DNA from: Lytechinus pictus | Taxonomy: Eukaryota | Assembly: GCF_037042905.1 (NCBI RefSeq) | Contig: NC_087245.1 | Coordinates: 23,810,001-23,874,000, forward strand | Reading direction: 5' to 3' | DNA: 64,000 nt | In this document: piece by piece, positions 1 through 26,803 of the stretch | Numbering within the stretch: position 1 is the stretch's first letter | How the letters are laid out: the number at the start of each line of letters is the position of its first letter | Position numbers and translations under genes: made by a program | Notes under the pieces: generated by a model | The model's input: the letters and a program-made list of their open reading frames with translations, nothing else | Databases searched by the model: none | What the model was told of the DNA's origin: nothing

Positions 1-1380
1 TGGAGCAGTTTTTGCCCTATAATATTTTATTTCCTTCTGTTTTGGGATAGCTTTCAAATTCTATCTGCATTCAGATTTTGGGTAACAACTTTTCCTGTCA
101 TTTGTAATTCAGGCCCAATAATAGCCAGATGAAGATATATATAAAAAAAAAAAAACTTTGTGAAGAGTTGTAGCTTTCCATCCGTTTGAGTACTGAATAA
201 TTGTCAGTGCCATTGTCTGCTGCAAATTGAAAAAATTAAATTCATAATCTGGAATTTTTTTTTTACGTACGAACCTATGGAAGCACAACCCTCCTGAAAA
301 CGACATGTCACAAAATTTAGGCCATTAAAAAAACTTGATACAGCCTACTGCCAAAACTTGTTATTTTGAGTTTTTCATCGCCAAAATACTCAGCTTTCAA
401 GTGGTGAATACACAGAAATTGTGCAAATTCATAGATGTGCATTATCCCACTTCAAGCAAAAGACAAGATAAAATTAATGACAGGGTCTAGCAGTCCGAAA
501 TTTTGTCATTTGTTTTATTATCATTATATATCGATACCATGCTGACTGTGTGTCAAGCACACAGTGATATTGTTATATTGTTGTATTAGTTTTACTCATC
601 ATCCATGGCTATTTTCAAAAATATTGTTTTTGCTCCAAGTAGTTAGGCCCTACAATATAATTCCTCTTTTTAACCTTTTCTCTCTTTTTTTCTCTGCGAA
701 ATCCTTCTCAACTTCCTACCACTCTGTGTCGTGTAGTGTCAGTTGAAGATACTGTACGCCCCGTATTTCCTTGGGTCTTCCTGTTGATAAGAGGGGCCCC
801 CACTCAGAACTAACTGTGAATTTGATAGGTTTGTCTGTGAAAAGATGGGCAGGAACATGCACAGATATGACGGAGAAAAAAACATTCTTCAGAATAGTGA
901 TTTATGACAATCATAGTAGTGTCACATCTTTGAAAGAAATGAGCGAATTTATGACAAAAGTTACAACGGCTTTCCAGAATACCACACCTGGTGGTCTGAT
1001 ATCCACTTGGTCTACTGATTATGGTATATTGCACTACAGCAAATGAAGAAAGAACAGATCTATAAGCATTTCTTGTAGAACTGCTGGTGTTACACCTCTA
1101 GAGTGGATATTAGGCAAATTGGGTGTTGCCAACTAATGTACCAGTTACTAAAATGTGAAAAGAAGGTCACCAACCAACTGGATTGCTCTAGTTGTCACAT
1201 GCAGGCAGGGTCAAGCAGTTACACCAAGTGCATATGCAGGGGGGGGGGGCTTAAGGGTGCGCTCTCCCCCCCCCCCCCCACGTAAAAGTCCAACTCTTGA
1301 TCCACGCCTGCACACTGTACTTAAAAACTCTTGAGCCTGTTATTTTTTCAGTGCTTTATTGACAAACAAGATTAGACTAA

Positions 1381-2151
1381 GGCTGCGTTTATGCGACCTC
1401 AAGCCAGAATCATGATTTGAATCATGATTTGAATCATGATTCAAAACACAAACATGAATCACAATATCACAGAATCAGCGTTTAGACGACCGTCATTCCA
1501 ATGCTGTTTCTCCTCAGATTCGGGCCAATCCAGTGCGCATCACTAGTGCGCAGTTTGACAGAGGAAGTTTTTCGCACGTGTTTCGGCTCTCGAAAAATCT
1601 TTTGCTTCCAGAATTCAACCTAATTTTGTTTACTTCTATCATATAAGGTCCATATGCTTCTATCCAAAATGGTGTTCGGAAGTGAATTTCAGCGTAGATC
1701 CAATTTAATATTGACACTCTATACTCATCATTGTCTCCAGTTAATTCATTTACTAGAACTTGAAGTTGAAGACATGACCAAAAAATGAAAAGTAGTGGAC
1801 GATGCGAAGACCAACACAGAACTTGAACATGACAAGAAATGCATGCAGAGTAATCATGTACATACAATGAGCATAAGCTTGGCAAGAGTCAAACCGAAAG
1901 CCGTAGCCCGACGACACAGTGAGGTCATATAATCATGATTCAAATCACGATATCGTTTATTCGAACATTTTCGTACGTGATTCTGCAGAAACGTCTTTCC
2001 AAACGCCCCTTTTTTCGTGTTTCATGTTTGTGATTCTAATCATGATTATATTCAATTTCGACTAAACGCAATCGTGATTCTGCAGAATCATGATTTGAAT
2101 CATGATTCAGATCATGATTCTAGGGTGAAAAAGTGGCGGATAAACGCACCC
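1381..2151. mobile_element. PIF/Harbinger-like MITE, present in unit 1 only
   Basis: TIRs GGCTGCGTTTATGCG / CGGATAAACGCACCC, flanked by TAA/TAT. Subterminal GAATCATGATTT repeats. Empty site gactaagttgaac in unit 2 at ~12066-12078. Confidence 0.88.
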
Positions 2152-3923
2152 TATGTTGAACATTCAAAGGAAGCCAATAGTATCAAATTTAAGAGTGGTT
2201 GGGAAGGATTGATGATCTAGGGAAAACTGTGAAATTAATTGTGCTGCCACATTTTGTATTCGTTGAATACAAAATTAATTCAGAGATATGCTTCATATCT
2301 ACATTTACTACAACTTTCTTCTTCATGGATTGTCATAGGCTTTGCTCTATGTTAAATCATGCAATCGATCTCTTTTTTGCATTAAAACAAGGGGATTTTT
2401 CACAAAATTTAATATCTACAACGTCTTAACTAGTGCTTCAACACAAATAACATTATTCAAATTGAAAAACAATGAACCTATAATGTTACAATACATTGCA
2501 GACATGTGTTATGGACCATTTAATTGGCTTGTCATTTGTCCAATTTAGATACATTATATGCAGATCTATGCATAATTTGGTTATATTCATGAGTGACTTT
2601 CTCTGAGTGAATGATCTTACAAGCAGGACTATAATATGAAATATCACAGAAGTATATAAACACCAGTAAATCTAAAACAAATTGGGCATTTCATTTACTT
2701 TTTGTCATATCCTTGTACATGTACATGTATCCTCAAACTACATATTAAAGATAGATACCAGTAGTGGTAATGACCCTCAAAATGAGTTCGAACAGAATCC
2801 AATAAAATACCACCCTTGGAGTGTTTGTATGTATGAATAAAGAATATGCGCCAATTGGCTCTGGAAGAAAATGCATAATTGCTGAGAAACAAGCAAAATA
2901 TTCACAGAATTCCATCAAATGTCTGGTATTTTTCCAGGAAGTATTAATACATTTTCCCATATATGCTATTCTGTGGTAGTGATCATTATAATTATTGGTT
3001 TTTAGCTAGGATTTCATGATTTCACAAAGATAAGTTTGCACTAATGTACCAGATGTACATGTAGATCAATGATGATATTGTGACTATTAACCTTTATTTA
3101 AAAGACTTTCTAATGAAATAATTGTTTGCTGCGTACACTTTCTTTTAAAATTGATGTGCTCATATTTTGTAATAAATACCACCACGCATTGCACATGTAG
3201 ATCATTGCCAGTTCAACATTTTATGTTCTTGTTAACTGTCCATCAGCCCCAGAATTATTTAAAAAAAATCACCTTTGTTTCGCTGCAATGTTAAAACTTA
3301 TTCAATGTTGCAGAATTTGTCAGTAGGTTCCAAAACGTAGCCCCCGAAAATAAGAAATGATGATAATGATTTAATGTCTGGTACCTGTAGGTTTATAGTA
3401 ACTATTTTTAGCATTTTTATCTTATTGAGAAAAGAACAAAGAAAGCCGCTCCAAAGCATAGCATTTTCTTCTTATCAAGAGAAAAGAAGAAAGAAATCCG
3501 CACCAAAGCTTCGCATATTTTTCGTTATGCCGTTCCGTCCACTTTGATCCCCTACAATGAACTGCAATTTTGGTGAAAAGCGGCCGCAGAGCGCTGTCCG
3601 ACCATCGCCTCTGCGCGAGCCCACCCGGTGACCATACCGCTTGGGTAGCTGCATGCATGTATGCCCATTCCATTGTGATGCAAACGCAGGCTACCCGTTC
3701 CAAGGACCCCTGTTTTCACAAACATTTGTAGTTCCGAGGCCCGTTCCGAGGACCCTCCTTTTTACAGCAAGCCCGCTCCAAGGCCCCTGAATTTTGTCTC
3801 GCCCGCTGCATATACCTACCACTTTTTTGGTCGTACCCCCCCCCCCCCCCTCCCCCGGGTATAACAGATTTCATTTATAGTCAAAGGGATAAGCTATACA
3901 AATTTCAAATTGCACTCTGTGTG

Positions 3924-6900
3924 TTAAATACAGTAAATGAATGCCAACATCGATACGAACAATACATAACATGACTTACATGTACTAATAACATTTGAAG
4001 TAGGCATACTTGAAGTTAAAATATTATTAGTACCACATTGAAGTGTATCTTTCCATTCTTTTGCTAATATTGTAGTACTAGTATTAGAACTGTCTTCCAC
4101 ATTCTCTTCCATTTCCTCTACAAGTAAATCTATAGTGAATTTTGTTTGCCCACCTTCATTCTTACTCCAACAGGTGTAAAGACCAATCATATCCTTAGTA
4201 ACGTAACTGATTAGAAGTGCATTATGTGGAAGGATAGAAATTGCTTCTGGTAGGGTGTCTCTTACAGTGTTTAGTTGTTTCCCTTGAAATGTGACTGACC
4301 AGTAAATGTCATTTGATGTTATTATTGGGCAAGGTAACTCAACCATTTTGTCACCAAGGAATGAAAGAAGAGTTTGGTAGGGCTGAGAGCACAGCAGTGG
4401 TCGGCAGGTGAAGCTGTTCTTGGCAGCAAGATCAACCACTGAATAGTTGGCATAAGCTAAAGGTTTGTCACATTTTATGGGGGTGAGTGTGTGTTTCAGA
4501 GCGAAAATAGATTTGATGAGGTCACAATTACATGTCCAAGGATTATTTTCTAATTCAATTTGGATGCTTTTCAAAGTGAAGGTCAGTAAGCCGAGATCAA
4601 GCTTTGTAAGTTGGTTGCCTTGAAGGTAAAGACGAGTCAAGTATGTCTGATGCCGTAATGAGCCAAATTCAAAGAACAGTATAAGGTTATAACTTAAATC
4701 TAGAAACCAGAATTGATGATGCTTGTCAAATGAATCCATTAAGATCAATTTTAGTTTATTTTGAGACAGATTGAGACTGTATGCTTTGTTACTTCTTGGC
4801 AGACAGTATTTTGGGATGGTAGTAATGGCATTGTTTGACAAATCAAGAATGTTTACAGTGTTTATTAACACATTTTGACAGTGGTCCCCAAGGTTGATAG
4901 AAGAGAGATTTAAAAACCATAGATCTGAGAATTCCAAAATGGTTCCTACACTATTACTTGTGTTTCTCACAAAGTGGGCACGAAAAGCCAAATTTTCATT
5001 GAGTTCCAAGTAGAGTAAATTTGGAGTATCTTGAAATATGCTCAAGGATGTGTTTGAAAAGGGTATAGAAGGAAAAGATATGCCCTCTATATCCTGACTT
5101 TCTGAAAACAGGTGATTTGAAATGCGTGTTAAAGGATTTTCACCTAAATAAATAAATTTCAAATCCAGAATGTCTGAGAAAAGACCAGAACGAAGGTGTG
5201 TTATGCGATTCCTTTCCAGCTTCAATTTCATAACTTGTCTTAAACCATAGAATGCTGTAGGATATATGTCAGCTATGTCATTATCGTTCAATTCAAGAAA
5301 TATTAGTGAGGATGCTGATGTGAAAGTGAAATTTGGTATGGAGACAATATGATTCTTATTCAGGTATAGTCCAACCAAATTGGGAGAAATTTTGATGTTT
5401 TTGAAATCAGTCAAGTTGTTGTTGCATGCAAATATATTGGTTCCTGATAGCTCACTTGAATTTGAAGCTCCAAAGGCATTATTATTAACGTTTATATGAA
5501 GAGCTGAAGTAGAAACAACATCAGTGATTCTGTTGCCCTCTGCATTGATATAAACGAGTGTTCTGTCACCAAAGAGGTGATTCAAGTTAAAATGATATAA
5601 AAGATTGTGACTGATATCAAGGCTTTGGAGGGATTGCAAGTTGCGTATATTAATCTCCATGAATAAATTAAATGACAAGTCCAAAGTTCTGAGATGGATT
5701 AGAGTCAAGAAGTCTGGAGAGTTGATGGTTCTGAGTCTGTTATGGCTTATATACAGCTTCTCAAGTGAATAAATGGAATGAAGGAATCTAAGATCAGAAA
5801 TTTTATTTTTGGCCAGGTTTAATACAGCTACATGTAGTCTTGGTGAAGAGTCAAATGTTGAGTTTTCTATAGTGTGAATTATGTTTTCTGATAATTGGAG
5901 ATTTGTAAGTTCAGGAAAAGTTGGAAGGTTTGATAATATTGATATTCTGTTTTTATTAAGCCTGAGCACACGAAGTTGAGGAAGGCAAATCAGGGTTTTG
6001 TTATCCAAAAATGTGATAGAGTTTGAAGACAGTTGCAGCCACTTTAGGTTTAGCAAATTTCCAAACTTTTTCGTGTTCTTAATTTGATTAGAGTTTAAAT
6101 TAATGTATTCTAAATTGTGATGACTATCCATGCCAAAGTCAACATATTTTATTCTATTGAATCCAGCATATAGAGAATACAGGTTAGGAAAGGACGAGAT
6201 GGAAATATTTTGCAGGTCATTCATATCAACATTAAGAATTCTTAGCTTTGTATAATTCCCTCCTTCAAATGTAAAGTCAAATCTTGACAGGCTGTTTTTT
6301 CGAAGGAGAAGACTTTGTGGTGTACTGAAGAAAGAGCATGATAATTGAATAATTTCATTGCCCTTTAAATTGATTGTATCTATGTTTGGAATGTTAGAAA
6401 AGGCAGGTCTTTGCACAACTCTTATATTGTTTTCTTCCAAAAATATGTGCCTGATGTACATCATATTACAGAAGGAAGAGATATCTATAATGTTGTTGTG
6501 CCGGAGTTTGATTGTGTCTAGCAAAGGGACACTTAAGAATACATTGTCACTGATGCGTCTTATGTAGTTGAATTCAAGCGTAAGTATCTTCAGGCTTTTC
6601 ATCGTTTGCAGTCTATCCAAATATTCAATATTGTTGTAGTTAATGTTCAGATGTGATATGGCATTTGGATACGCCAACATCATTGTGTGAAGGTCATTGA
6701 TAGCATTTCCATTCAAATTCAAAATTGATAATTTGAATGGAATTTTTGGTAGACTTGTGAGTTTATTGTATGCCAGTTCAAGTTCTGTAAGGTGTGTTGT
6801 ATTCTGAAGTGTTTGATGATGCCACTCTGTCAGAGAGTTCTGCATGACAGATATTTGTAGAATGATGGGTAACGAACCAAGATATGGAATGCTCTGAAGG

Positions 6901-7232
6901 AAGTTAGAGTGAAGTTCTATGAGCATAAGTTCTCCTGCATTATCAAAGACTTGCTTCTCGATGTAGTGTAGATGGTTATGGGACAGAAGAAGTTCCCTCA
7001 ACCTGTTTTGGCATGAGAATGACCCTCTGTTTAGCGTGGAGATGAAGTTCCTGCGCAAGTTAAGTACACCAACATTACATGGGAGATCCTTTGGAACATC
7101 TTCTAGATAGTGGTCTGTACATGTCATTCTAAAATTCACACCCTGCTGCTCACAGTGACACGGATCCTGACATTGTGAATTACAGCCCCTTCCATAAACA
7201 GTGACTAGTAGTAGGAATATGAAGATATTCAT
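3924..7232 (-). CDS. Intronless LRR-Ig cell-surface protein, copy 1 (1102 aa from the conserved ATG; an in-frame upstream ATG exists at 7295)
   Basis: Uninterrupted 3.3-kb ORF. Signal peptide MNIFIFLLLVTVYGRGCNS, LRRNT CQDPCHC..C, many LxxLxLxxNxI repeats, LRRCT NPWTCNCDL..C, Ig-like domain (LPC..YW..DMIGLYTC), S/T-rich stalk, hydrophobic C-terminus VLFVSMLAFIYCI*. Confidence 0.93.
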   Translation of the reverse strand: MNIFIFLLLVTVYGRGCNSQCQDPCHCEQQGVNFRMTCTDHYLEDVPKDLPCNVGVLNLRRNFISTLNRGSFSCQNRLRELLLSHNHLHYIEKQVFDNAGELMLIELHSNFLQSIPYLGSLPIILQISVMQNSLTEWHHQTLQNTTHLTELELAYNKLTSLPKIPFKLSILNLNGNAINDLHTMMLAYPNAISHLNINYNNIEYLDRLQTMKSLKILTLEFNYIRRISDNVFLSVPLLDTIKLRHNNIIDISSFCNMMYIRHIFLEENNIRVVQRPAFSNIPNIDTINLKGNEIIQLSCSFFSTPQSLLLRKNSLSRFDFTFEGGNYTKLRILNVDMNDLQNISISSFPNLYSLYAGFNRIKYVDFGMDSHHNLEYINLNSNQIKNTKKFGNLLNLKWLQLSSNSITFLDNKTLICLPQLRVLRLNKNRISILSNLPTFPELTNLQLSENIIHTIENSTFDSSPRLHVAVLNLAKNKISDLRFLHSIYSLEKLYISHNRLRTINSPDFLTLIHLRTLDLSFNLFMEINIRNLQSLQSLDISHNLLYHFNLNHLFGDRTLVYINAEGNRITDVVSTSALHINVNNNAFGASNSSELSGTNIFACNNNLTDFKNIKISPNLVGLYLNKNHIVSIPNFTFTSASSLIFLELNDNDIADIYPTAFYGLRQVMKLKLERNRITHLRSGLFSDILDLKFIYLGENPLTRISNHLFSESQDIEGISFPSIPFSNTSLSIFQDTPNLLYLELNENLAFRAHFVRNTSNSVGTILEFSDLWFLNLSSINLGDHCQNVLINTVNILDLSNNAITTIPKYCLPRSNKAYSLNLSQNKLKLILMDSFDKHHQFWFLDLSYNLILFFEFGSLRHQTYLTRLYLQGNQLTKLDLGLLTFTLKSIQIELENNPWTCNCDLIKSIFALKHTLTPIKCDKPLAYANYSVVDLAAKNSFTCRPLLCSQPYQTLLSFLGDKMVELPCPIITSNDIYWSVTFQGKQLNTVRDTLPEAISILPHNALLISYVTKDMIGLYTCWSKNEGGQTKFTIDLLVEEMEENVEDSSNTSTTILAKEWKDTLQCGTNNILTSSMPTSNVISTCKSCYVLFVSMLAFIYCI

Positions 7233-8839
7233 TGTTGTTCTGAGAGAAGGAATTTCCAGATGGAAAAACATGTCAATGAAAGATTTGCATTTCATAGGGA
7301 TCGTCTTCTTTCTCCTGTGGAAATGATTGAGTCAAGCACACAATTATCAACAAATGGTAATCCAACAGTCTTCACTTTCTTGAAATATTGTATTACTCTT
7401 ATTTTTCAATGAAGAGCACTGCTTATGGGTAAGACATGCGTACATCATATGCATTATCAAGAGAATACCAGTGAGAGAATACTGAGACTAATAATAGTGA
7501 ATGTGACTTATATAGTGCCAGATCCACTCTGTAGAGAGCTGGAGGTGTATGAAGAAATTATAAGGTGAACAGAAAAGTTGTAAGAACACTTTTAAAGGAC
7601 TCGACACATACAATTTTCATGTGCATACAAAAAGAATATTAAAGCAAATGATAGTGATTAGAGCAAGCAAAAATTAGACAACAAACAGAGCTCTATTGGA
7701 GGTCATCCAGTAGGCGTTAAGACCCAACCAAAAAATAAATAGTAATAATGATCATTATAAAAATGAGGAAAATGATACTTCTCTCTTTAAGGTTGTAATT
7801 AGCTCTGGGAACGAGTAATCCAGAATTTATGCCTCTAGCATTTCAAAGTATTAATTTTTTAATTGCAGAAGATGAATGCTTTTTAGTATATTGATTGAAT
7901 GTTCTTCCGCAAAAATGCATTGTGAATAATAATAATAATAATAATTGGCTTTAACATCACGCTTTATGAATCTACAATTGCTCAAAGCGCTTCTCAATTA
8001 CAAAGCCTGCTTTAATGTACGTATGTATGATAAATACTCATCAGGATTTGATACAAAAATGACATCGGCGGGTAATTAATTTAATTAAATTTCTTTTGCT
8101 TGGAGGGAATTCTGATTACCATTAGAGCATGATCGGTTCATCACGGATGGACATTTGATCGATTTTCAAATTTTGAAGGCTTGTAACAAATTAAGAATAA
8201 GATGAGCAAGGTTTGTTTGTGTATTATAGTGAAAGGTACTAGGACAAAGTATACTGCATGATTAAAAAAGTAGGTTGCCATGGTTACCTACAAACACAAG
8301 GATCCACTAAACGTTCCTTTTCACAAGATGAAAATAGTGTTTTAAAATTTGTTGTACATTTCTATTGTTTCTATCTAAACAACTTAACATTGACTAACAA
8401 TTGTTGATGCAAATATAACACTCCTGTCTCTTTAATAGCTTTTATGTCAAGCATATTGAATTCTAAACCAATATCTAACTTCTGAGAGAATCGCAAATAT
8501 TTTTCATCATGGATGGACATCACGGACGGACACAGTTAACCCACATCAGGAGGACCTTGTAAGAAGTTCTTGTTATTTTTTTGGAGGAGGTGAACAAATG
8601 CTAAATTTGATGAATTGTACATTTCTGAATATGATTGAACAGTGTTGGTTGCACAATCAAGTTGCTGCAAGTTGAACCAACTTGATTGAAATGGTAGCAT
8701 GCTAGACTTTTATCTCAACTTATGATTGCTTTAAGCACAAAATCAAATGTTCTAATGTTCATTGTTTTATTTTCAGATTATAGACGTGGTACCATGTACA
8801 TGTACATGAAGCTGATCAATGATGTACGGTACATGTTAA

Positions 8840-9246
8840 GGCCACCACACACCTTACGACTGTTCGTGATCCGATTTTGGAACAAATCGCAATTTGCTCA
8901 TTTTCTGAAAGTGTGAATGGAACATATCATTTTATTTGAGGTTAAAATTAATTGAAAGAATACTACCATTTTGAAAGATTGCAAGCCTTTATTTTGGAGT
9001 AAAGGTCAAATTAGTTTCAAATCGTAGCCAATCGTACGACTGCTATGACGTCATTACGACTAGATATTAAATTCGCTTTTATTCTAAGAAGGATGATAGC
9101 ATAGTCACAGATTTGAACATAGGTATTCGTACAATGATTTAGAACATTACACAGTAATATATTCCAAGTCTCAATATTAGCATCAAATTCTACTACATTT
9201 TATTCTGAAATCGAGTCGCAGACCAATCGTAAGGTGTGCGGTCGCC
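8840..9246. mobile_element. Harbinger-like MITE
   Basis: TIRs GGCCACCACACACCTTACGA / TCGTAAGGTGTGCGGTCGCC, flanked by TTAA on both sides. Second copy at 40906-41710. Confidence 0.85.
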
Positions 9247-9290
9247 TTAACATGTTCATGAATCATAATATCTCATGATCAAATATGTTA

Positions 9291-10256
9291 TAGTAGAGTG
9301 GATAAGCAGAACAATTGTGCAAATTATGACTTAAGCATGAAACTTTCACAAGTATTAGTATATGCCGTAAGATTTATTTTAAAGATGGGAGGTAAATTTT
9401 TAAATGCTATTTTTGGCTGTTGCCATGGCAACGGATTAATTTCTCCAAAATAACATACATTCCCATGTAAATGGTAAATAAAAATGATATACAGTAGATG
9501 ACCAAAATGATAATTTTCAGGCTCCCATTTGAAAACATGAAATTTAGAAATATTCAAGATCACCAAGATAGTTCCAATTGGTCTGTTGCCATGGCAACGG
9601 CTTGTTTTTCCCCAGAAAAATAAAAAAATTGATTAAAAAACCGTTGTAGAATATGATTTATCTTTAATTTCCCCTAATTCTACAATGTTAAAGATATTTT
9701 GGTTGCTAAATGTGTAAATTACATCTCAAGCCATTGCCATGGCAACCAAATAACATCTAATTTACAAAAATAACATGGTTGACAAGACAATGGACAGGTG
9801 GAAAATACAGTTAGAATTGACTTAATCTGTATGCTTAAGTTTTGACCCCCTCATTTGAACAAAAAATACAGAAGTGTTCTGCAGGAGTTCTTTATAAAGG
9901 TAAAAAAATATGTTGCCTTGGTAATGCTTGAATTTTCAGTTATTTATATATATATATTGGAGCTATCTTGGTGATCTTGAATATCTGTAAATTTCATATG
10001 TATTCAATTGGGAGCCTGAAAATCATCATTTTGGTCATCTATATCATGTTTATTTACCATTTACATGGGAATGTATGTAATTTTGGAGAAATTAATCCGT
10101 TGCCATGGCAACGGCCGAAAATGGCATTTAAAAATTTACCTCCCATCTTTAAAATAAATCTTACGGCATATACATGTACTTATACTTGTGAAAGTTTCAT
10201 GCTTTAGTCAAAATTTGCACAATTGTTGTGATTTTTGGAGCTTATCCGCTCTACTA
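9291..10256. mobile_element. Non-autonomous DNA transposon with long imperfect TIRs (Academ-like TAGTAGAG termini)
   Basis: TAGTAGAGTGGATAAGC..GCTTATCCGCTCTACTA, ~280-bp inverted arms, 3-bp TTA TSD. Confidence 0.8.
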
Positions 10257-10493
10257 TTAATACATGTACTAGGCGTTAATTTTCCAAGAACAAATTTGCC
10301 TTAAAGTCTGTTGATCTATCTTTTTTTTTCTGCCTCAGGAATATAAAAAAAAAAAAATTAAAAGGTTGCTGATTCCCGATTCTTGTTTGGTAGATCAAGT
10401 ATGGCCACAACATTTTGTCAGAGGCTCTCTTGAATATCCCTCTTTTGCCCACTTGTAATGGAGACACCATAACACCAACAGCAGTCATGTATG

Positions 10494-11172
10494 TAGACCC
10501 TGACCGGACCCAAAATTGTAATTGATAAAATCATATACCAATCAAAGTCTTATTAAACTTCTTAACACAGCAATGCAAGCTTTATATATTTTCACTGTTT
10601 ACTAGCTGAGCAATTTGCCTAAAATTAGCTCCAATTACTGGGCTTCAGAAAAAGGCAACCTTGAATTAAGGAAATCTACAGCTTTGGAGCAGTTTTTGCC
10701 CTATAATATTTTATTTCCTTCTGTTTTGGGATAGCTTTCAAATTCTATCTGCATTCAGATTTTGGGTAACAACTTTTCCTGTCATTTGTAATTCAGGCCC
10801 AATAATAGCCAGATGAAGATATATATTAAAAAAAAAAACTTTGTGAAGAGTTGTAGCTTTCCATCCGTTTGAGTACTGAATAATTGTCAGTGCCATTGTC
10901 TGCTGCAAATTGAAAAAATTAAATTCATAATCTGGAATTTTTTTTTTACGTACGAACCTATGGAAGCACAACCCTCCTGAAAACGACATGTCACAAAATT
11001 TAGGCCATTAAAAAAACTTGATACAGCCTACTGCCAAAACTTGTTATTTTGAGTTTTTCATCGCCAAAATACTCAGCTTTCAAGTGGTGAATACACAGAA
11101 ATTGTGCAAATTCATAGATGTGCATTATCCCACTTCAAGCAAAAGACAAGATAAAATTAATGACAGGGTCTA
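10494..11172. mobile_element. hAT-like MITE shared by both duplication units (partial copy at 1-489)
   Basis: TIRs TAGACCCTG / CAGGGTCTA; TSD not clean. Confidence 0.6.
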
Positions 11173-14100
11173 GCAGTCCGAAATTTTGTCATTTGTTTTA
11201 TTATCATTATATATCGATACCATGCTGACTGTGTGTCAAGCACACAGTGATATTGTTATATTGTTGTATTAGTTTTACTCATCATCCATGGCTATTTTCA
11301 AAAATATTGTTTTTGCTCCAAGTAGTTAGGCCCTACAATATAATTCCTCTTTTTAACCTTTTCTCTCTTTTTTTCTCTGCGAAATCCTTCTCAACTTCCT
11401 ACCACTCTGTGTCGTGTAGTGTCAGTTGAAGATACGCCCCGTATTTCCTTGGGTCTTCCTGTTGATAAGAGGGGCCCCCACTCAGAACTAACTGTGAATT
11501 TGATAGGTTTGTCTGTGAAAAGATGGGCAGGAACATGCACAGATATGACGGAGAAAAAAACATTCTTCAGAATAGTGATTTATGACAATCATAGTAGTGT
11601 CACATCTTTGAGAGAAATGAGAGAATTCATGACAAAAGTTACAACGGCTTTCCAGAATACCACACCTGGTGGTCTGATATCCACTTGGTCTACTGATTAT
11701 GGTATATTGCACTACAGCAAATGAAGAAAGAACAGATCTATAAGCATTTCTTGTAGAACTGCTGGTGTTACACCTCTAGAGTGGATATCAGGCAAATTGG
11801 GTGTTGCCAACTAATGTACCAGTTACTAAAATGTGAAAAGAAGGTCACCAACCAACTGGATTGCTCTAGTTGTCACATGCAGGCAGGGTCAAGCAGTAAC
11901 ACCAGGTGCATATGCAGGGGGGGGGGCGGGCTTAAGGGTGCGCCCCCCCCCCTGGATAATCAGCCCCCCCTCGTAAAAGTCCAACTCTTGATCCACGCCT
12001 GCACACTGTACTTAAAAACTCTTGAGCCTGTTATTTTTTCAGTGCTTTATTGACAAACAAGATTAGACTAAGTTGAACATTCAAAGGAAGCCAGTAGTAT
12101 CAAATTTAAGAGTGGTTGGAAAGGATCGATGATCTAGGGAAACCTGTGAAATTAATTGTGATGCCACATTTTTTAATCGTCGAATACAAAATTAATTAAT
12201 TCAGAAATTTGCTTCATATCTACATTTACTACAACTTTCTTCTTCATGGGTTGTCATAGGCTTTACAGCTATGTTAAATCATGCAATCGATCTCTTTTCT
12301 TCATTAAAACAAGGGGATTTTTCACAAAATTTAATATCTACAACGTCTTAACTAGTTCCTCAACACAAATAACATTATTCAAATTGAAAAACAATGGACC
12401 TATAAAGTTACAGTACATTGCAGACATGTGTTATGGACCACTGAATTGGCTTGTCATTGGTCCAATTAAGATACATTATTATGCAGATCTACGCATAATT
12501 TTGTTATGTTCATGAGTGACTTTCTCTGAGTGAATGATCTTACAAGCAGGACTATAATATGAAATATCACAGAAGTATATAAACACCAGTAAATCTAAAA
12601 CAAATTGGGCATTTCATTTACTTTTGTCATATCCTTGTACATGTATCCTCAAACTACATATTAAAGATAAATACCAGTAGTGGTAATGACCCTCAAAATG
12701 AGTTCGAACAGAATCCAATAAAATACCACCCTTGGAGTGTTTGTATGTATGAATAAAGAATATGCGCCAATTGGCTCTGGAAGAAAATGCATAATTGCTG
12801 AGAAACAAGCAAAATATTCACAGAATTCCATCAAATGTCTGGTATTTTTCCAGGAAGTATTAATACATTTTCCCACATAGGCTATTCTGTGGTAGTGATC
12901 ATTATAATTATTGGTTTTTAGCTAGGATTTCATGATTTCACAAAGATTAGTTTGCACTAATGTACCAGATGTAGATCAATGATGATATTGTGAGTATTAA
13001 CCTTTATTTAAAAGACTTTCTAATGAAATAATTGTTTGCTGCGTACACTTTCTTTTAAAATTGATGTGCTCATATTTTGTAATAAATACCACCACGCATT
13101 GCACATGTAGATCATTGCCAGTTCAACATTTTATGTTCTTGTTAACTGTCCATCAGCCCCAGAATTATTTTTTTAAAATCACCTTTGTTTCGCTGCAATG
13201 TTTAAACTTATTCAATGTTGCAGAATTTGTCAGTAGGTTCCAAAACGTAGCCCCCGAAAATAAGAAATGATGATAATGATTTAATGTCTGGTACCTGTAG
13301 GTTTATAGTAACTATTTTTAGCATTTTTATCTTATTGAGAAAAGAACAAAGAAAGCCGCTCCAAATCATAGCATTTTCTTCTTATCAAGAGAAAAGAAGA
13401 AAGAAATCCGCACCAAAGCTTCGCATATTTTTCGTTACGCCGTTCCGTCCGCTTTGATCCCCTACAATGAACTGCAATTTTGGTGAAAAGCGGCCGCAGA
13501 GCGCTGTCCGACCATCGCCTCTGTGCGAGCCCACCCGGTGCCCGTACCGCCGGGGTAGCTGCATGCAGGCTACCCGTTCCAAGGACCCCTGTTTTCACAA
13601 ACATTTGTAGTTCCGAGGCCCGTTCCGAGGACCCTCCTTTTTACAGCAAGCCCGCTCCAAGGCCCCTGAATTTTGTCTCGCCCGCTGCATATACCTACCA
13701 CTTTTTTGGTCGTACCCCCCCCCTCCCCCGGGTATAACAGATTTCATTTATAGTCAAAGGGATAAGCTATACAAATTTCAAATTGCACTCTGTGTGTTGA
13801 ATACAGTAAATGAATGCCAACATCGATACGAACAATACATAACATGACTTACTAATAACATTTGAAGTAGGCATACTTGAAGTTAAAGTATTATTAGTAC
13901 CACATTGAAGTGTATCTTTCCATTCTTTGGCTAATATTGTAGTACTAGTATTAGAACTGTCTTCCACATTCTCTTCCATTTCCTCTACAAGTAAATCTAT
14001 AGTGAATTTTGTTTGCCCACCTTCATTCTTACTCCAACAGGTGTAAAGACCAATCATATCCTTAGTAACGTAACTGATTAGAAGTGCATTATGTGGAAGG

Positions 14101-17100
14101 ATAGAAATTGCTTCTGGTAGGGTGTCTCTTACAGTGTTTAGTTGTACCCCTTGAAATGTGACTGACCAGTAAATGTCATTTGATGTTATTATTGGGCAAG
14201 GTAACTCAACCATTTTGTCACCAAGGAATGAAAGAAGAGTTTGGTAGGGCTGAGAGCACAGCAGTGGTCGGCAGGTGAAGCTGTTCTTGGCAGCAAGATC
14301 AACCACTGAATAGTTGGCATAAGCTAAAGGTTTGTCACATTTTATGGGGGTGAGTATGTGTTTCAGAGCGAAAATAGATTCGATGAGGTCACAATTACAT
14401 GTCCAAGGATTATTTTCTAATTCAATTTGGATGCTTTTCAAAGTGAAGGTCAGTAAGCCGAGATCAAGCTTTGTAAGTTGGTTGCCTTGAAGGTAAAGAC
14501 GAGTCAAGTATGTCTGATGCCGTAATGAGCCAAATTCAAAGAACAGTATAAGGTTATAACTTAAATCTAGAAACCAGAATTGATTATGCTTGTCAAATGA
14601 ATCCTTTAAGATCAATTTTAGTTTATTTTGAGACAGATTGAGACTGTATGCTTTGTTACTTCTTGGCAGACAGTATTTTGGGATGGTAGTCATGGCATTG
14701 TTTGACAAATCAAGAATGTTTACAGTGTTTATTAACACATTTTGACAGTGGTCCCCTAGGTTGATAGAAGAGAGATTTAAAAACCATAGATCTGAGAATT
14801 CCAAAATGGTTCCTACACTATTACTTGTGTTTCTCACAAAGTGCTCACGAAAAGCCAAATTTTCATTGAGTTCCAAGTAGAGTAAATTTGGAGTATCTTG
14901 AAATATGCTCAAGGATGTGTTTGAAAAGGGTATAGAAGGAAACCATATGCCCTCTATATCCTGACCTTCTGAAAACAGGTGATTTGAAATGAGTGTTAAA
15001 GGATTTCCACCTAAATATATACATTTTAATTCTAGAATATTTGAGAAAAGACCAGAACGAAGGTGTGTTATGCGATTCCTTTCCAGATTCAATTCCACAA
15101 CTTGTCTTAAACCAATGAATGCTGTAGGATATATATCAGCTATATCATTATCGTTCAATTCAAGAAATATTAGTGAGGATGCTGATGTGAAAGTGAAATT
15201 TGGTATGGAGACAATATGATTCATATTCAGGTATAGTCCCACCAAATTGGGAGAAATTTTGATGTTTTTGAAATCAGTCAAGTTGTTGTTGCATGCAAAT
15301 ATATTGGTTCCTGATAGCTCACTTGAATTTGAAGCTCCAAAGGCATTATTATTAACGTTTATATGAAGAGCTGAAGTAGAAACAACATCAGTGATTCTGT
15401 TGCCCTCTGCATTGATATAAACGAGTGTTCTGTCACCAAAGAGGTGATTCAAGTTAAAATGATGTAAAAGATTGTGACTGATATCAAGGCTTTGGAGGGA
15501 TTGCAAGTTGCGTGTATTAATCTCCATGAATAAATTAAATGACAAGTCCAAAGTTCTGAGATGGATTAGAGTCAAGAAGTCTGGAGAGTTGATGGTTCTG
15601 AGTCTGTTATGGCTTATATACAGCTTCTCAAGTGAATAAATGGAATGAAGGAATCTAAGATCAGAAATTTTATTTTTGGCCAGGTTTAATACAGCTAGTC
15701 TTGGTGAAGAGTCAAATGTTGAGTTTTCTATAGTGTGAATTATGTTTTCTGATAATTGGAGATTTACAAGTTCAGGAAAAGTTGGAAGGTTTGATAATAT
15801 TGATATTCTGTTTTTATCGAGCGTGAGTTCACGAAGTTGAGGAAGGCAAATCAGGGTTTTGTTTTCCAAAAATGTGATAGAGTTTGAAGACAGTTGCAGC
15901 CACTTTAGGTTTAGCAAATTTCCAAACTTTTTCGTGTTCTTAATTTGATTAGAGTTTAAATTAATGTATTCTAAATTGTGATGACTATCCATGCCAAAGT
16001 CAACATATTTTATTCTATTGAATCCAGCATATAGAGAATACAGGTTAGGAAAGGACGAGATGGAAATATTTTGCAGGTCATTCATATCAACATTAAGAAT
16101 TCTTAGCTTTGTATAATTCCCTCCTTCAAATGTAAAGTCAAATCTTGACAGGCTGTTTTTTCGAAGGAGAAGACTTTGTGGTGTACTGAAGAAAGAGCAT
16201 GATAATTGAATAATTTCATTGCCCTTTAAATTGATTGTATCTATGTTTGGAATGTTAGAAAAGGCAGGTCTTTGCACAACTCTTATATTGTTTTCTTCCA
16301 AAAATATGTGCCTGATGTACATCATATTACAGAAGGAAGAGATATCTACAATGTTGTTGTGCCGGAGTTTGATTGTGTCTAGCAAAGGGACACTTAAGAA
16401 TACATTGTCACTGATGCGTCTTATGTAGTTGAATTCAAGCGTAAGTATCTTCAGGCTTTTCATCGTTTGCAGTCTATCCAAATATTCAATATTGTTGTAG
16501 TTAATGTTCAGATGTGATATGGCATTTGGATATGCCAACATCATTGTGTGAAGGTCATTGATAGCATTTCCATTCAAATTCAAAATTGATAATTTGAATG
16601 GAATTTTTGGTAGACTTGTGAGTTTATTGTATGCCAGTTCAAGTTCTGTAAGGTGTGTTGTATTCTGAAGTGTTTGATGATGCCACTCTGTCAGAGAGTT
16701 CTGCATGACAGATATTTGTAGAATGATGGGTAACGAACCAAGGTATGGAATGCTCTGAAGGAAGTTAGAGTGAAGTTCTATGAGCATAAGTTCTCCTGCA
16801 TTATGAAAGACTTGCTTCTCGATGTAGTGTAGATGGTTATGGGACAGAAGAAGTTCCCTCAACCTGTTTTGGCATGGGAATGACTCTCTGTTTAGCGTGG
16901 TGATGAAGTTCCTGCGCAAGTTAAGTACACCAACATTACATGGGAGATCCTTTGGAACATCTTCTAGATAGTGGTCTGTACATGTCATTCTAAAATTCAC
17001 ACCCTGCTGCTCACAGTGACACGGATCCTGACATTGTGAATTACAGCCCCTTCCATAAACAGTGACTAGTAGTAGGAATATGAAGATATTCATTGTTGTT

Positions 17101-17632
17101 CTGAGAGAAGGAATATCCAGGTTGAAAAAGCTTTCAATGTAAGATTGCAATGATAGGGACCATCTTCTTTCTCATGTGGAAACGTCAAACACAAGGATAT
17201 CAACAAAGGGTAATCCAACGGTCTTCACGTTCTTGAAGTATTGTATTACTCTATTTTCCATGAAGAGCACTGCTTATGAGCAAAGAAATGACTACATCAT
17301 GATATGCATTGTCTAGAGAGCTACAAGTAAAGAATCCAGAGACTAAGGATATTAAATGAATGATACATGCGACTTATAAAGTGCCAGATCCACTCTGTAG
17401 AGAGCTCTAGGTACGTAAAGAAACTGAAGTGAACAGAAATTTTTAAACTGAACAGAGATGCAGTTTTTATGTCTTCAGGAAGTCTATTCCAACGGAGTAG
17501 CTTTCCGAAGACATACAAAATCACATACATGTAGATACATGAAGAATAGGCACTTCTCTAAAAAAAAAAATGCCGCTAATTATCTCTGGGAAAAAGATTA
17601 TCCAGAATTTATGCCTCTAGTATTTCAAAGTA
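10685..17632. repeat. Tandem segmental duplication, unit 2 (homology resumes at 22845-22915 after a TE insertion)
   Basis: Colinear with 1-7850. 22845-22915 (ttaattgcaggagatgattgct..gcaaaaatgca) matches 7851-7920. Confidence 0.93.
13767..17093 (-). CDS. Intronless LRR-Ig cell-surface protein, copy 2 (1108 aa)
   Basis: Paralog of 3924-7232, ~97% aa identity by manual alignment. The track start at 17150 is TTG; the ATG shared with copy 1 is at 17093. TAA>CAA extends the C-terminus by QHTECNLKFV. Confidence 0.93.
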   Translation of the reverse strand: MNIFIFLLLVTVYGRGCNSQCQDPCHCEQQGVNFRMTCTDHYLEDVPKDLPCNVGVLNLRRNFITTLNRESFPCQNRLRELLLSHNHLHYIEKQVFHNAGELMLIELHSNFLQSIPYLGSLPIILQISVMQNSLTEWHHQTLQNTTHLTELELAYNKLTSLPKIPFKLSILNLNGNAINDLHTMMLAYPNAISHLNINYNNIEYLDRLQTMKSLKILTLEFNYIRRISDNVFLSVPLLDTIKLRHNNIVDISSFCNMMYIRHIFLEENNIRVVQRPAFSNIPNIDTINLKGNEIIQLSCSFFSTPQSLLLRKNSLSRFDFTFEGGNYTKLRILNVDMNDLQNISISSFPNLYSLYAGFNRIKYVDFGMDSHHNLEYINLNSNQIKNTKKFGNLLNLKWLQLSSNSITFLENKTLICLPQLRELTLDKNRISILSNLPTFPELVNLQLSENIIHTIENSTFDSSPRLAVLNLAKNKISDLRFLHSIYSLEKLYISHNRLRTINSPDFLTLIHLRTLDLSFNLFMEINTRNLQSLQSLDISHNLLHHFNLNHLFGDRTLVYINAEGNRITDVVSTSALHINVNNNAFGASNSSELSGTNIFACNNNLTDFKNIKISPNLVGLYLNMNHIVSIPNFTFTSASSLIFLELNDNDIADIYPTAFIGLRQVVELNLERNRITHLRSGLFSNILELKCIYLGGNPLTLISNHLFSEGQDIEGIWFPSIPFSNTSLSIFQDTPNLLYLELNENLAFREHFVRNTSNSVGTILEFSDLWFLNLSSINLGDHCQNVLINTVNILDLSNNAMTTIPKYCLPRSNKAYSLNLSQNKLKLILKDSFDKHNQFWFLDLSYNLILFFEFGSLRHQTYLTRLYLQGNQLTKLDLGLLTFTLKSIQIELENNPWTCNCDLIESIFALKHILTPIKCDKPLAYANYSVVDLAAKNSFTCRPLLCSQPYQTLLSFLGDKMVELPCPIITSNDIYWSVTFQGVQLNTVRDTLPEAISILPHNALLISYVTKDMIGLYTCWSKNEGGQTKFTIDLLVEEMEENVEDSSNTSTTILAKEWKDTLQCGTNNTLTSSMPTSNVISKSCYVLFVSMLAFIYCIQHTECNLKFV

Positions 17633-18786
17633 GGGGAGACCGGGGTTAGTTGGAACGCGGGGTAAGTTGAAACATTGTAATTTTCTTTAACGTCTTTAAA
17701 TAAATTTCTGCAATACTGCCCTCAATTTATTGTCATTATCAACAGCCATCCACCATATTAGAGACAACACATGTGCAACAAGCCTGGTGAAGTTAGAAAG
17801 GAATTTTTTGTTGTTGACCTTCTGAGTAATTTTTTTCTCTTTCAGATATGTTTTATTATTTCAGAGAAGTTTATAGATCAAGTTGGCCAGTTTGGGTGTA
17901 TGATAGACACTTGTACCAAGCTACAAAATGGGGTTATTAATATGCCATGGTGAAGTCCCTTTTTTGTGCTTTAAGCTTATAAACATCAAATGGGCCTCCG
18001 GGGTTAGTTGGAACAAAATTGAAGGGGCTTATCCTCGCGCGAATTTTTTTTTACTACACTGCTCGCTGACTTTTTACTTTCAAGTCTTGCGCATCATTTG
18101 AGACCAAATTTGCGATGCCTGTGTGCGCGATTTTGAAATTACGCAACATTTTGTATGTGCATGTTGGACCCAAAATTGATCAAAAACGTGATTCGATGTA
18201 CAAGTTCAATGCAAATTGTGTTTTCAACCAAAAGTCATAAATGTATGAATATTTTTTACTTTTGTTGGTTCAAATAGATTTATTTTATGCTATTTATGAT
18301 CGCAAAAGAGTCCCGACAAAGTTCATAGGAAAAAACAAAGGTTCGAAAAAACGAAATACAAATAAAAAAACAAAAAATACATAAGAAATTATATTTTTTG
18401 CAATTTTTGGTGGATATTTGTTATAAATGTGAAAATTTATACTCTCACCAAAAATTAGCATTCTACTAGGTTAATAAATAGAGTTAAAGGCAAAAACATA
18501 CAAAAAAAAAACAAATTTTGGGCAAATTTCATATGCTTATTTGCATAATTAATTAATGAAAAAATATAAACAATCAATTTTTGTCTTGTAAATTGGATGC
18601 AGAAGTACATGAAATTGCTGATAGTACACTTAATTGCATGTAAAATCAAACGCACCCAAATATATATGCGGAATTCTACTTTACACAGTCTGCTTGCGTG
18701 AGTGGCTGTATAATAGAAAACATAAAGTTTAACAAATCCACACTTCAAATATTTTGAACTTGAAAAAATAAAGCAAATAGGCTAAA

Positions 18787-21700
18787 GGGTCATTCTCAAA
18801 AAAATGTTACAATTCACAAAAAAACGTGTCTCGACTATCTTATGGCCGCTAGCTTCACAACCCTGAACATTTTCTACAAAAATATTATCAAGAAAATGAC
18901 AATAATAGACTAGCTCCACAAAGCATATGCGACCAGTGACTAGTAAAGCTCTAATTTTATTACAAAAGCCTTTTATTTTTGCTTTTTGTTAGAATCGACG
19001 CTGTCTCGGGTCAGTTTTATATTTTACTATCATTCTCTTTCCTAAGTAGTCTGTATTTCTTACCTACATTAATGTCTGGTGAGGGCAGCTTGGTGTAAAC
19101 GTCCGACATACTGCGCTTATCCTAGTATTTGATAATCCCTTTGTGATTAATTTCACTTTTAACTTTGTCCCAAATTCATTTTAACCTCCGTAACGAATAC
19201 TGCCACAAGTTTTTTCTCCCATTCATACTGAATGATATTATGTGATAATGTGTCTACAAGTAGAGTGATATTCATTAATAAATAATTGATAGGGAATTAT
19301 CCTATGTGTTTCCTGTATTACACGGAAATAAAGGACTATTCTTAAAAAATAAAAAGTATGACTAAACAGCTTTAACATCCGTAACGCACCTTAAGAAAAT
19401 ATGCACTTTGGCAGTTCTGTTAAGGATTCAGTATTATATAGGATAAGATACACATTTCATAATAAATACAATTTTCAAAGGTATGGCTGCTAAATAAGGA
19501 CCACGTTGGACCATAAAGCATAAAGACATTAACTTCCGTAACGCATTAACTTCCGTAACATTTTTTCTTGAATATGCTACAAATTTGTGCTATACTGAAT
19601 CACTCCGGATCATACAGATATAAATCATATAAGGTACCGTCCACCTACTTACCCATAAAATGATAGCTATTCATCCCTGTCAAATTATTATTACACACCT
19701 TATTTTCAACATCACTTTGAAAAGAGGGAAAATTGCCAGCGAAAACAATTTCCCGAGAATTATATATGATATTTAATGCTTTTAGAATTTTAAATAATTC
19801 ATACTACAAATTTTGAATATTGGCATCTTCTTTAGAACTTAAGATTTCTAATTTCCTTTGCTATATAAAGTGCATTAACTTCCGTAACAATTACTGTTAG
19901 GGAAGTTAATACACTTCTTTGCTTTCCTTTGCTAAGATTGATAGCACGATTCTAGTTCCAGAACAGGTGACATGGCTTTGTCTAATGCTGTAGTCGGCAG
20001 AAATGGTGTAGAGAAAGGGAAGAAGGAGAAACAATTAAGCTTTCATGGACAAGGAAAGAGACAAAAACTGTTTGCAATGGCTCATGAGGAGGGTTAATGT
20101 ATCACCGATCAAAAATGTGAGCGCAAAGCGCGAGCTAAAACTTGTATAGTCTAACCTGAAAACTTGAAATTCTAGGATTTTTTTGTAAAAATGATCAGGA
20201 TGTTATCTGAATAAACTATTAATGCGAGTACAAAGTGTTAGCTGATTTTTTTTTTCATATTCTGACTGAAAGCTTGACATTCTAAACACTCTTTGCACCA
20301 ATCACAAGGGTGGGTATCTTAATTGATGCGACTGTAAATTTTTTATATTTTGATATGAAAACAATAATTTTTGGACGTTGTAATTTGAGAACAAGATATA
20401 TATCCAATAAACAATTATTGCAAAGGTAAAACGCGCGCTTTTTTTTTAGGTTTAGTCCCCAAAACGGGACATTCTACTAATTACTTTTTGTAATCATAAA
20501 AAGGATGGGTGTCTTGCTAAGGAAATGATGCGCAGTGAGTGCGAAGCGCGAGCTGAAAATATGTGTCAATCCAATATGAAAACCAGACATCTTAAGCACG
20601 CTTTCAAATAAAGAGGATATAAATTGAATAAAAAATAATTTCATGCAATACAATACAAAAAAACAAGTGGGGATTACATGTATGTACACCATCAATCAAC
20701 TCTTTTAATATTCATGAAGATATGCATAGACTATATTGTTTCACTAAAATAATGCAAATCTTTAAAATGGCATAACTTCGTTATTTCTTGTTCAATTTTG
20801 ATCATATTTGAAGTATTTTGTTTGTCTGCTTATTATCTGTTCGAGATCATATTTTTCAGCCTGGATGACCCCTTTAATGTGCATGAAAAGCGCTTGAATA
20901 ATCGATATAGGCCTACTGACATGAAAACATGGAAAGGGGTATTTCAAACACTCACGCTTTGTTGGAATTTATAAATGAAATACGTATTTCGATAATCAAA
21001 CATTTTAGCTATTCATATTTTTTTTTTAATCACGAATAGGAAGCGTAATTGCGTATCTCGATAAAACAAACTAATGAAAAAAAAATGCGATTAGATCATA
21101 TAGATTCCATTAATAATTTATGTATTTGTGAATTTTTAGCCTCTTGTTTCATTCACCTTACTTTTTTATTATTCATTTCCCCATGTCCTTTTTAAAATGT
21201 TTTTTCCCCTATTTTTCTATCTTTTTTGGCTATTGGCAAGCGGCGGGAGTCCTCGTAACCCAGAGAACTCGTCCTGGTTACGGGACTGCGATTGTTACAT
21301 TTTGTTTATTGCCAGAAACTTTAAAGATGAACTGTAATTCTGTGGCCCGGTTATTCGGTTTTCTCATTCCAACTGTGAACAAGAACGACAATAAAATTAC
21401 AGTTTCCGTTTCCTGTTTATGTTTTTCACAATTTTTTTTTTTTTGGGGGGGGGTGGCAAATTAAGCTATGCGTTCCATATTTATCTTTATTTATTAAAAA
21501 AAAGGTTATACGAATACCTAAATATGGATTTTCCTAAGCTAACAAATAAATACTGCAATTTGTAACTTGATTTAACTTCCGTAACAAAGATTGACAAGGG
21601 TAAATGCCACTCGAGGATTTGATGGTAAAGTATCTTGGGATTCCCAAAATTGGTCATGCATTGCTTAGGATCTTGCTTAGGATTACTTAGGACCAGAAAC

Positions 21701-22538
21701 TTGTAAGATGAACTACAATTCTGTGGCCCGGTTATTCGGTTTTCTCATTCCAACTGTGAACAAGAACGACAACAAAAATGAGAGTTGTCCGTTTCCTGTT
21801 GTGTTTTTAATTTTTTTTTATTTGGGGGGGGGGGGAATTAAGCAATGCGTTCCACATTCATCTTCAATAAACTAAAAGAAAAATGTTATACCAATACCTT
21901 AATATGGATGTTCCTAAGCTAACAGAATAAGTAGTGCAATTTGTAACTTGATTTTAACTTCCGTAACGAAGGTTGACAAGGTTAAATGCCATCGAGAGGA
22001 TTTAATGGTAAACTATCTTTTGATTCCTAGCATTGGTCATGCATTGCTTAGGATCTCAGGTTATGGATGAAAGTTATTTTAAGGTTGCCTCATTCAAATT
22101 ATGAACATTAAACTAAACGAAAGATGTGCAATGATTTTTATGGTACTTTTTGTTAAATGTTATTTGGTAAAATCCTGCTTCTGAAAAAGAATATTGAATA
22201 TTTTTGCTATCTTGCAAACATTTTTGCTTCAGTAAATAAAACTGTTGATACCACACTGAAACTAAATGGTGTGCATTTCTATTTCAATCATTTCAAAAGT
22301 GATTTAATTGAGTAACATAAGTGAACAATGCTAACGATTAACCTCCGTAACGTTGATATACAGTGCTTGAGTTAATCCGGTCAGTACTTCAAATTGAAGC
22401 AACAGCGACATGCCCCTTTTCTGTTGCCACTTTCTCATACATGGTACTTTCACAATATGTATTTTTCAACCCATTTTGTAGACTTCATTTTTACAATTTT
22501 TCCCCCCATCAATTGTAGCATTTTTCTGAGAATGACCC
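18787..22538. mobile_element. Nested non-autonomous DNA transposon (3.75 kb)
   Basis: TIRs GGGTCATTCTCAAAAAAATGTTACAATT / AATTGTAGCATTTTTCTGAGAATGACCC, TAAA on both sides, recurrent TTAACTTCCGTAAC motif. Confidence 0.8.
21312..22056 (+). repeat. Direct tandem duplication, period ~381 bp
   Basis: ccagaaact..gtggcccggttattcggttttctcattccaactgtgaacaagaacgac occurs at 21312 and 21693. Confidence 0.9.
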
Positions 22539-22986
22539 TAAAACCATGTAATATTTAACAGTTTTAAGTAGTTTTAGTCATTCTTAATTGACCATGCAGT
22601 GTTCCAACTTACCCCATACCATGTTCCAACTTACCCCATATTGGGGTAAGTTGGAACGTTTGCGATGGTCTTGTTCAAGGTGGATTTTTTCAGTTACCAT
22701 AATAGAGTTAAAAATTTTATGGGGTACATTTGAAGCCCTTAGATATATGCTTCAAGCTGATATATTGATTGTTTCTCGAATAAAATCTATTTGGATTTTA
22801 CAGCCATTTTTGTCAAAAATGTTCCAACTAACCCCAGTCTCCCCTTTCTATTCGTTAATTGCAGGAGATGATTGCTCATTTATAGTATATTCAATGACTT
22901 TGGCAAAAATGCAATGCAAAATGTCACAGAGGGAATTCGGCTTAGATCAAATTTAAAGAAAATTATATGGGGGATGATTAGTTTAA

Positions 22987-26678: not shown

Positions 26679-26803
26679 ATACCAGGCATTTTTTTCGAAA
26701 GTATAGAGGGAATTATTCATCCTCGGTTGTACTGGCAAAATCATGCCAGTCCAACCTCGGATGAGTAATTCTCGCTATACTTACTCAAAGCCTGATATAT
26801 TTA
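26679..26803. mobile_element. Small palindromic MITE whose left TIR is interrupted by the 25003-26678 element
   Basis: Hairpin at 26701-26780. aaatataccag|gc (split) pairs with gcctgatatattt. Confidence 0.6.

Follow-up and report, generated by a model that had tools for sequence, protein, structure and literature searches.

Derived micro-insertions at TA, probable excision scars of a Tc1/mariner-type element, in a duplicated leucine-rich repeat locus of Lytechinus pictus

Results

Insertions at TA distinguish two duplicated units

We analyzed a 64-kb stretch of the Lytechinus pictus genome (contig NC_087245.1; the window, to whose whole length all positions refer) that holds two duplicated stretches, unit 1 and unit 2, each with a leucine-rich repeat (LRR) gene, together with a non-autonomous inverted-repeat element (miniature inverted-repeat transposable element, MITE). 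Aligned copies of these sequences differ by short insertions at TA dinucleotides, here called scars, which were probably left by an excised transposon. The main features of the locus are as follows.

1 to 7575, no strand assigned: unit 1, partner of 10685-17439
10685 to 17439, no strand assigned: unit 2, with empty TA alleles at 11433, 12636, 12969, 13850 and 15696 and the second LRR gene
3927 to 7295, minus strand: unit-1 LRR gene, a single intact open reading frame (ORF) of 1,123 codons from the first ATG, with both coding scars inside
13767 to 17171, minus strand: unit-2 LRR gene (NCBI XP_063956428)
9291 to 10256, no strand assigned: MITE with TAG..CTA ends and TTA flanks, with two scars inside and not itself of the type that would have donated them

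Between the two units, 113 substitutions fall in about 6,450 aligned bases (1.75%), and the alignment of 1-7289 with 10685-17150 contains 15 internal indels, five of which are TA-bounded insertions in unit 1, or about one scar per 23 substitutions. Four of the five six-base indels are TA>TACATGTA in unit 1, and among the 15 internal indels no insertion of this type is private to unit 2; the 5:0 asymmetry is not significant (p 0.0625). A sequence-only reading of the window had listed these four CATGTA insertions and one TA>TACTGTA in unit 1, with none specific to unit 2, and all five were found where it had placed them. The insertion that it reported at 10171 in one MITE arm is also real, with neither the other arm nor a second copy of the element sharing it, while a further MITE scar, TA>TACAGTA at 9490, had been overlooked. 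Unit 1 also carries, as unit 2 does not, a 774-bp element at 1381-2154 with inverted ends starting in GG and TAA/TAT flanks, which we take to be Harbinger-like. The seven scars found by pairwise comparison are listed here.

750 to 756, no strand assigned: TA>TACTGTA (+5), unit 1 only, matching a canonical Sleeping Beauty footprint
2716 to 2729 (2714-2729 in the alignment), no strand assigned: TACATGTACATGTA, an extra CATGTA beside a TACATGTA common to unit 2 (12638)
3056 to 3063 (3053-3063 in the alignment), no strand assigned: non-coding TA>TACATGTA (+6), unit 1 only, no tandem duplication
3977 to 3984, no strand assigned: coding TA>TACATGTA (+6), which on read-through adds Thr-Cys ahead of the hydrophobic tail, and which splits an A/GTAAGT donor
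5829 to 5836, no strand assigned: coding TA>TACATGTA (+6), adding His-Val and taking one LRR from 24 to 26 residues with the predicted beta-strand kept
9490 to 9496, no strand assigned: TA>TACAGTA (+5) in the MITE left arm, in neither the right arm nor the copy at 46817
10171 to 10178, no strand assigned: TA>TACATGTA (+6) in the MITE right arm, in neither the left arm nor the second copy

All seven scars are bounded by TA, double the TA and have CATG, CAG or CTG as their core. Their size spectrum is +6 in five of seven, +5 in two and +4 in none, with +6 predominating in non-coding DNA too, and in unit 1 their frequency is much the same in coding DNA (two per 240 TA sites) and in aligned non-coding DNA (three per 242).

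The coding and MITE insertions are derived

We found that both coding insertions are absent from the L. variegatus orthologue, from four older paralogues and from a third L. pictus copy (XP_063954636), and that both MITE insertions are absent from two of three arms, namely the other arm and the second copy at 46817. By sequence comparison, then, the coding and MITE insertions are derived relative to the empty site, and the possibility raised at the outset that the CATGTA-containing state might be ancestral falls away at both coding sites. Four of the seven scars are polarized in this way, the two coding ones by outgroup and the two MITE ones by three-way comparison.

Host repair or slippage, by templated insertion at breaks or by expansion of CATGTA-like units, could in principle make such insertions without a transposon. 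The extra CATGTA at 2716 is an exact tandem duplication, which either slippage or a second visit by an element can explain. Arrays of 16-20 bases are present at 2714, 8793 and 58011, the 3-4 base core is found no more than 60 bp away from six of the seven sites (short cores being common by chance), and the empty sites lean to GTA/TAC (13 of 20, against an expected fraction of 0.31), a flank preference that weakens once arrays are dropped. On the other hand, six of the seven scars, with 2716 as the sole exception, show neither tandem duplication nor a full template within 60 bp; this holds for the two coding cases, as the sequence-only reading had maintained in rejecting slippage for them, and at 5829 not even CATG is found nearby. 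With 2716 left out, the chance that three of five random six-base indels would read CATGTA at TA is about 6e-12. Moreover, templated repair would copy differing flanks, whereas the core of the scars is invariant across differing flanking sequence. We therefore regard host repair or slippage as quite unlikely. Replication slippage as a general cause was rejected because adjacent sequence is duplicated at only one of the seven sites (2716), and the independence of the core from its flanks likewise excludes hairpin-type (hAT/Ac) footprints, which are described in the available text of PMC4561436 as palindromic additions copied from flanking host DNA.

The six-base scar motif is enriched in the window

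TACATGTA occurs 22 times in the window, in 20 arrays, compared with 1.64 +/- 1.24 expected from 100 dinucleotide shuffles (largest 4) and 2.3-3.4 expected under Markov orders 2-4. This enrichment of about 10-fold agrees with the initial estimate of about 20 occurrences against 2-3 expected (1.6-3.4 when shuffles and Markov models are taken together). Since its one-mismatch neighbours are at background (42 observed and 41.9 expected, with unit 2 and the large foldback element at 34591-38747 removed), the enriched motif suggests young scars or fast turnover. TACAGTA and TACTGTA, which were to be counted alongside it, show no clear enrichment over a Markov background in the window, with 14 observed against about 10 expected.

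An enriched motif might instead be a transcription-factor site under selection, the reading put forward in Phytophthora, where the available text of two papers describes the TACATGTA octamer as abundant and reads it as a factor-binding site, bound by PsMyb37 (PMC3520976, PMC11134190); binding-site selection, however, fails to account for insertions in coding sequence and in MITE arms. The differences might also be assembly errors, since the two units could be alternative haplotypes placed in tandem by the assembly, the unit-1 protein has no exact-sequence match in the protein collection from either start tried, and the mapped reads give no confirmation of the unit-1 alleles. In a repeat-dominated mapping of reads and contigs from four runs to 7576-27575, none of the 12 indels listed among 1,053 lies at a scar site, and the RNA run gives almost no depth on the LRR gene. 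Yet a sequencing error that repeatedly adds one same palindrome is unlikely, a contig from an independent run is identical (0 differences) to 8405-8830 with the 8793 array included, and the insertions would still be real and polarized if the units were haplotypes. Taken together, a selected binding site or assembly error appears very improbable as the source of these insertions.

Two in-frame scars lie in the coding sequence of the unit-1 LRR gene

The unit-1 protein has a signal peptide, LRRs, a C-terminal beta domain and a hydrophobic tail; its Pfam matches are to LRR families only, and the beta domain appears immunoglobulin (Ig)-like by inspection and structure model. The unit-2 reading frame is 100% identical to XP_063956428 (L. 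pictus) over the searched region and 86% identical to an L. variegatus protein. The two coding scars are the only coding indels between the gene copies: at 5829, CTA GCT has become CTA CAT GTA GCT (PRLAV>PRLHVAV), and at 3977, AGT AAG has become AGT ACA TGT AAG (ISKS>ISTCKS). The scar, being palindromic, reads the same on both strands and its frames give His-Val (HV), Thr-Cys (TC) or Tyr-Met (YM), and a +6 scar placed in silico at each of the 240 TA sites of the unit-2 frame created no stop. The idea of a stereotyped, frame-preserving mutator holds in that the insertions are stereotyped, derived and account for both coding indels, but +5 scars also occur, and the process is not purely frame-preserving.

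In AlphaFold models around 5829 the beta-strand is kept, and since the strand spacing goes from 24 residues in unit 2 (470 to 494) to 26 in unit 1 (477 to 503), the extra His-Val is predicted to lengthen a loop. Model confidence beside the HV insertion is 51 versus 69, a weak sign given that other low-confidence stretches also differ between the models. The 3977 site lies on an A/GTAAGT splice donor, which the scar turns into two donors 6 nt apart. Homologues read through this site, their frame continuing to the hydrophobic tail, while the NCBI model of unit 2 ends in SNVII, which implies a predicted splice at the 3977-equivalent donor. Two residues are added at 5829 and, if read-through is assumed, likely at 3977 as well.

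Constraint looks weak, pN/pS between the LRR gene copies being 0.75 (36 and 14 differences). We rejected the view of unit 1 as a decaying pseudogene, as its ORF is intact and it has 3 private residue changes compared with 10 in unit 2. We found no evidence of adaptive value for either two-residue insertion. Separately, unit 2 has CAA at 13800-13802 where unit 1 has a TAA stop, giving a read-through protein with 10 more residues past the hydrophobic tail, and a third copy, P0121, ends as unit 1 does. Residue differences between the copies cluster at codons 421-425 and 661-718 (4950-6100 of the window and its unit-2 partner), and at some residues the third copy matches the two crosswise, a pattern that hints at diversifying selection or gene conversion.

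A matching protein signature occurs in a brittle star

In 250 LRR G-protein-coupled receptor (GPCR) proteins, echinoderm where named and many of them unnamed, we scored indels of two residues flanked by conserved sequence. Two of the 33 indel sites carry the strict HV signature, against a background of 0.0018 per window (P 0.002 per site and 0.013 over all 97 long-side rows). Both come from Amphiura filiformis: L-HV-A in P0122 (residues 23-24) and V-HV-E in P0130 (residues 203-204), each identified at the protein level only and unique among its paralogues. The signature was found at 0 of 22 sites in a mostly non-echinoderm control set, which is too small to discriminate. These results are suggestive of a protein signal in fast-evolving families more than in the whole proteome.

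Discussion

We propose that TA>TACATGTA and TA>TAC(A/T)GTA are recent, derived micro-insertions at TA, probably left by an excised Tc1/mariner-type element with CAG..CTG ends. In this mechanism, a transposase would put the element into TA, duplicating the TA, and the element would then excise by staggered cutting, with some of its terminal bases left behind on either side. End joining of two 2-base overhangs end to end (CA+TG) would yield +6, while 3-base overhangs that are overlapped (CAG/CTG) would yield +5. In coding DNA, selection would purge resident elements and frame-shifting +5 scars and would tolerate the stop-free +6 scar with its HV, TC or YM, and a redundant, weakly constrained LRR copy may have kept two +6 scars that are probably near-neutral.

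Excision scars of this general kind have been described, according to the available text of the papers cited here. In Caenorhabditis elegans, +4 scars (TACATA/TATGTA) make up 78% of somatic Tc1 excisions (PMC12632400), and taCATGta counts as a rare footprint of Tc1 (PMC3520976, which cites Eide and Anderson 1988). The scars in the window resemble those of Tc1 in their TA target, doubled TA and CA/TG terminal bases, taCATGta itself being a recorded Tc1 product. Sleeping Beauty leaves eight footprints, of which TACAGTA and TACTGTA are canonical and among which TACATGTA is not given (10.1101/659086), and TACAGTA at 9490 and TACTGTA at 750 are of these canonical forms. The original attribution to Tc1/mariner footprints is accordingly sound for the +5 forms, which are canonical for Sleeping Beauty, whereas TACATGTA is rare in Tc1 and not the standard product. 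As in rice Mariner and Stowaway polymorphisms, natural excision scars retain the target duplication plus element ends (PMC4423477, PMC4561436).

Several observations weigh against an excised Tc1/mariner-type element. Unlike Tc1, in which +4 reaches 78% and +6 is rare, the scars here are +6 in five of seven, the +4 product is unenriched (TACATA, 39 observed against 46.9 expected in the window), and they lie in a natural genome assembly. Unlike Sleeping Beauty, they include TACATGTA, which is outside the eight footprints in its available description. Their spectrum is thus dominated neither by +4, as for Tc1, nor by +5, as for Sleeping Beauty. In rice Mariner there are 2.6-2.8 insertions for every excision and the scars are mixed (PMC4423477), and the rice Mariner/Stowaway record, as far as the available text goes, is of heterogeneous scars, insertions outnumbering excisions by about 2.7 to 1 and almost no coding cases, while here the scars are uniform, outnumber residents and include coding ones. 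Between the units there are 5 scars and 0 TA-type resident elements, and the 12 indels listed of the 1,053 from read mapping include no resident-element allele at a scarred site. The three non-coding unit-1 scars have no outgroup for direction. A TA-flanked CA..TG donor, the Tc1/mariner element that the sequence-only reading had suggested looking for, is not among the best 20 and 30 hits in the window, all of which lie inside larger palindromes, and Pfam found no transposase in 150 of the 151 ORFs that lie outside both units and reach 62 residues or more. The target consensus of Tc1 is CAYATATRTG, and the match of the sites to it goes from p 0.006 with 20 sites to p 0.07 with the 17 that are left when arrays and one duplicate are dropped. 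At the protein level, stricter flank thresholds leave the signature at 1 of 14 and 0 of 5 sites, no echinoid HV case is among the 250 proteins scored, and five conserved L. variegatus-L. pictus orthologue pairs (about 4,040 residues, 94-97% identical) contain no short indel; the expectation of in-frame insertions across the proteome therefore finds thin support, with the two brittle-star HV cases in its favor and none in these Lytechinus pairs. Since the donor element was not found and the +6 spectrum is atypical, we do not file the scars under Tc1 proper or Sleeping Beauty proper.

A transposase with other chemistry would address some of these points. If an element had CAT..ATG ends, 3-base overhangs annealing through the self-complementary AT would give TA-C-AT-G-TA; alternatively, integration could be aborted or reversed at once and leave no stable resident. 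By this inferred geometry, the uniform +6, the lack of +4 and the 5 scars with 0 TA-type residents would be explained. However, the +5 scars require CAG/CTG ends and hence a second family, no CAT-ended TA-flanked element is among the best hits in the window, and we found no published precedent in the available text of the literature on excision footprints. We consider such a chemistry unlikely, and an excised Tc1/mariner-type element with CAG..CTG ends is the reading that we retain.

In-frame footprints that restore the frame and add residues are known from Ac/Ds, Spm and Tc1 revertants of maize and C. elegans. Those are laboratory cases with variable scars, whereas in the natural paralogues of this locus the recurring scar is a single stereotyped, stop-free one. 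Excision footprints, including in-frame laboratory ones, are already established, while the dominance of +6 with no resident element departs from the published spectra. In the open-access literature we found no account of TACATGTA scars across an echinoderm genome, and older footprint papers may bear on the rarity of +6; the available text of PMC13148408, PMC5521727, PMC7913693 and PMC12862219 contains nothing on +6 scars.

Six-base indels are excessively common between lancelet haplotypes, where they are unexplained (PMC4284660, supplement). The two cases are alike in that six-base indels are well above expectation, there in a highly polymorphic marine deuterostome, and differ in that the lancelet paper gives no sequence or cause, with 0 mentions of footprint, excision or CATG in the available main text and supplement (PMC4284660). 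We infer that the lancelet 6-bp peak may be linked to TACATGTA. More broadly, we put forward as a tentative proposal, with somewhat less than even prospects, that a transposase drives a stereotyped insertion mutator in echinoderms and perhaps also in lancelets and further marine invertebrates. The main product of this mutator, TA>TACATGTA, would be in-frame and stop-free in all three frames and would write HV, TC or YM into proteins at a rate that could be measured, scars would far outnumber resident elements, and the lancelet 6-bp indel peak would be explained.

Repeat annotation counts only the elements that are still resident, so that excision scars usually escape notice. The present scar type, recognizable in both DNA and protein (HV after L/I/V, TC or YM), makes hidden cut-and-paste turnover countable and datable from haplotype or orthologue alignments. 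Locally, scars may be a major class of indel (5 compared with 113 substitutions), and the coding cases may reflect a process that repeatedly alters echinoderm proteins. The scar also offers a direct test for the lancelet 6-bp indel excess (PMC4284660), and it may be asked whether the TACATGTA motif so abundant in Phytophthora itself originated as a scar.

Other features of the window

A second motif, TACTAGTA, is also enriched in the window, with 10 observed against 0.6-1.1 expected. We did not count it as a scar, as four copies lie in one repeat and the single alignable case is a substitution. The sequence at 55287-55299 is TACAGTACTAGTA, which resembles nested scars. The TACTAGTA copies and one further gene are listed here.

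4076, 13943, 43916, 46879, 47992-48398, 54245 and 55292: copies of TACTAGTA
58084 to 61570, plus strand: exons of an ankyrin-repeat gene

The 20-base TACATG array at 58011-58030 lies about 55 bp ahead of the apparent start codon of the ankyrin-repeat gene. When metagenomes were scanned with the end pattern of a MITE, two loci of 53-59% GC were found, neither of them similar to the window.

Further inverted-repeat elements are present. The 4.2-kb foldback element at 34591-38747, presumably IS3EU-like, has nearly identical arms (about 99%), ends in TATGAGG and a 6-bp flanking duplication (TTTACC), and a 4-bp indel between its arms at 35969/37400 creates CATGTA. An inverted-repeat element at 25003-26678 has TAGGAG termini and is flanked by a 7-bp duplication (ATACCAG). 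Divergence between its arms is sharp at about 25500-25530 and 26140-26170, where TACTGTA and TACATGTA occur. Lastly, the MITE family with TTAA-AGG ends at 22983-23712 and 62641-63202 has by far the highest depth in the mapped runs, and this depth marks it as a very high-copy repeat.

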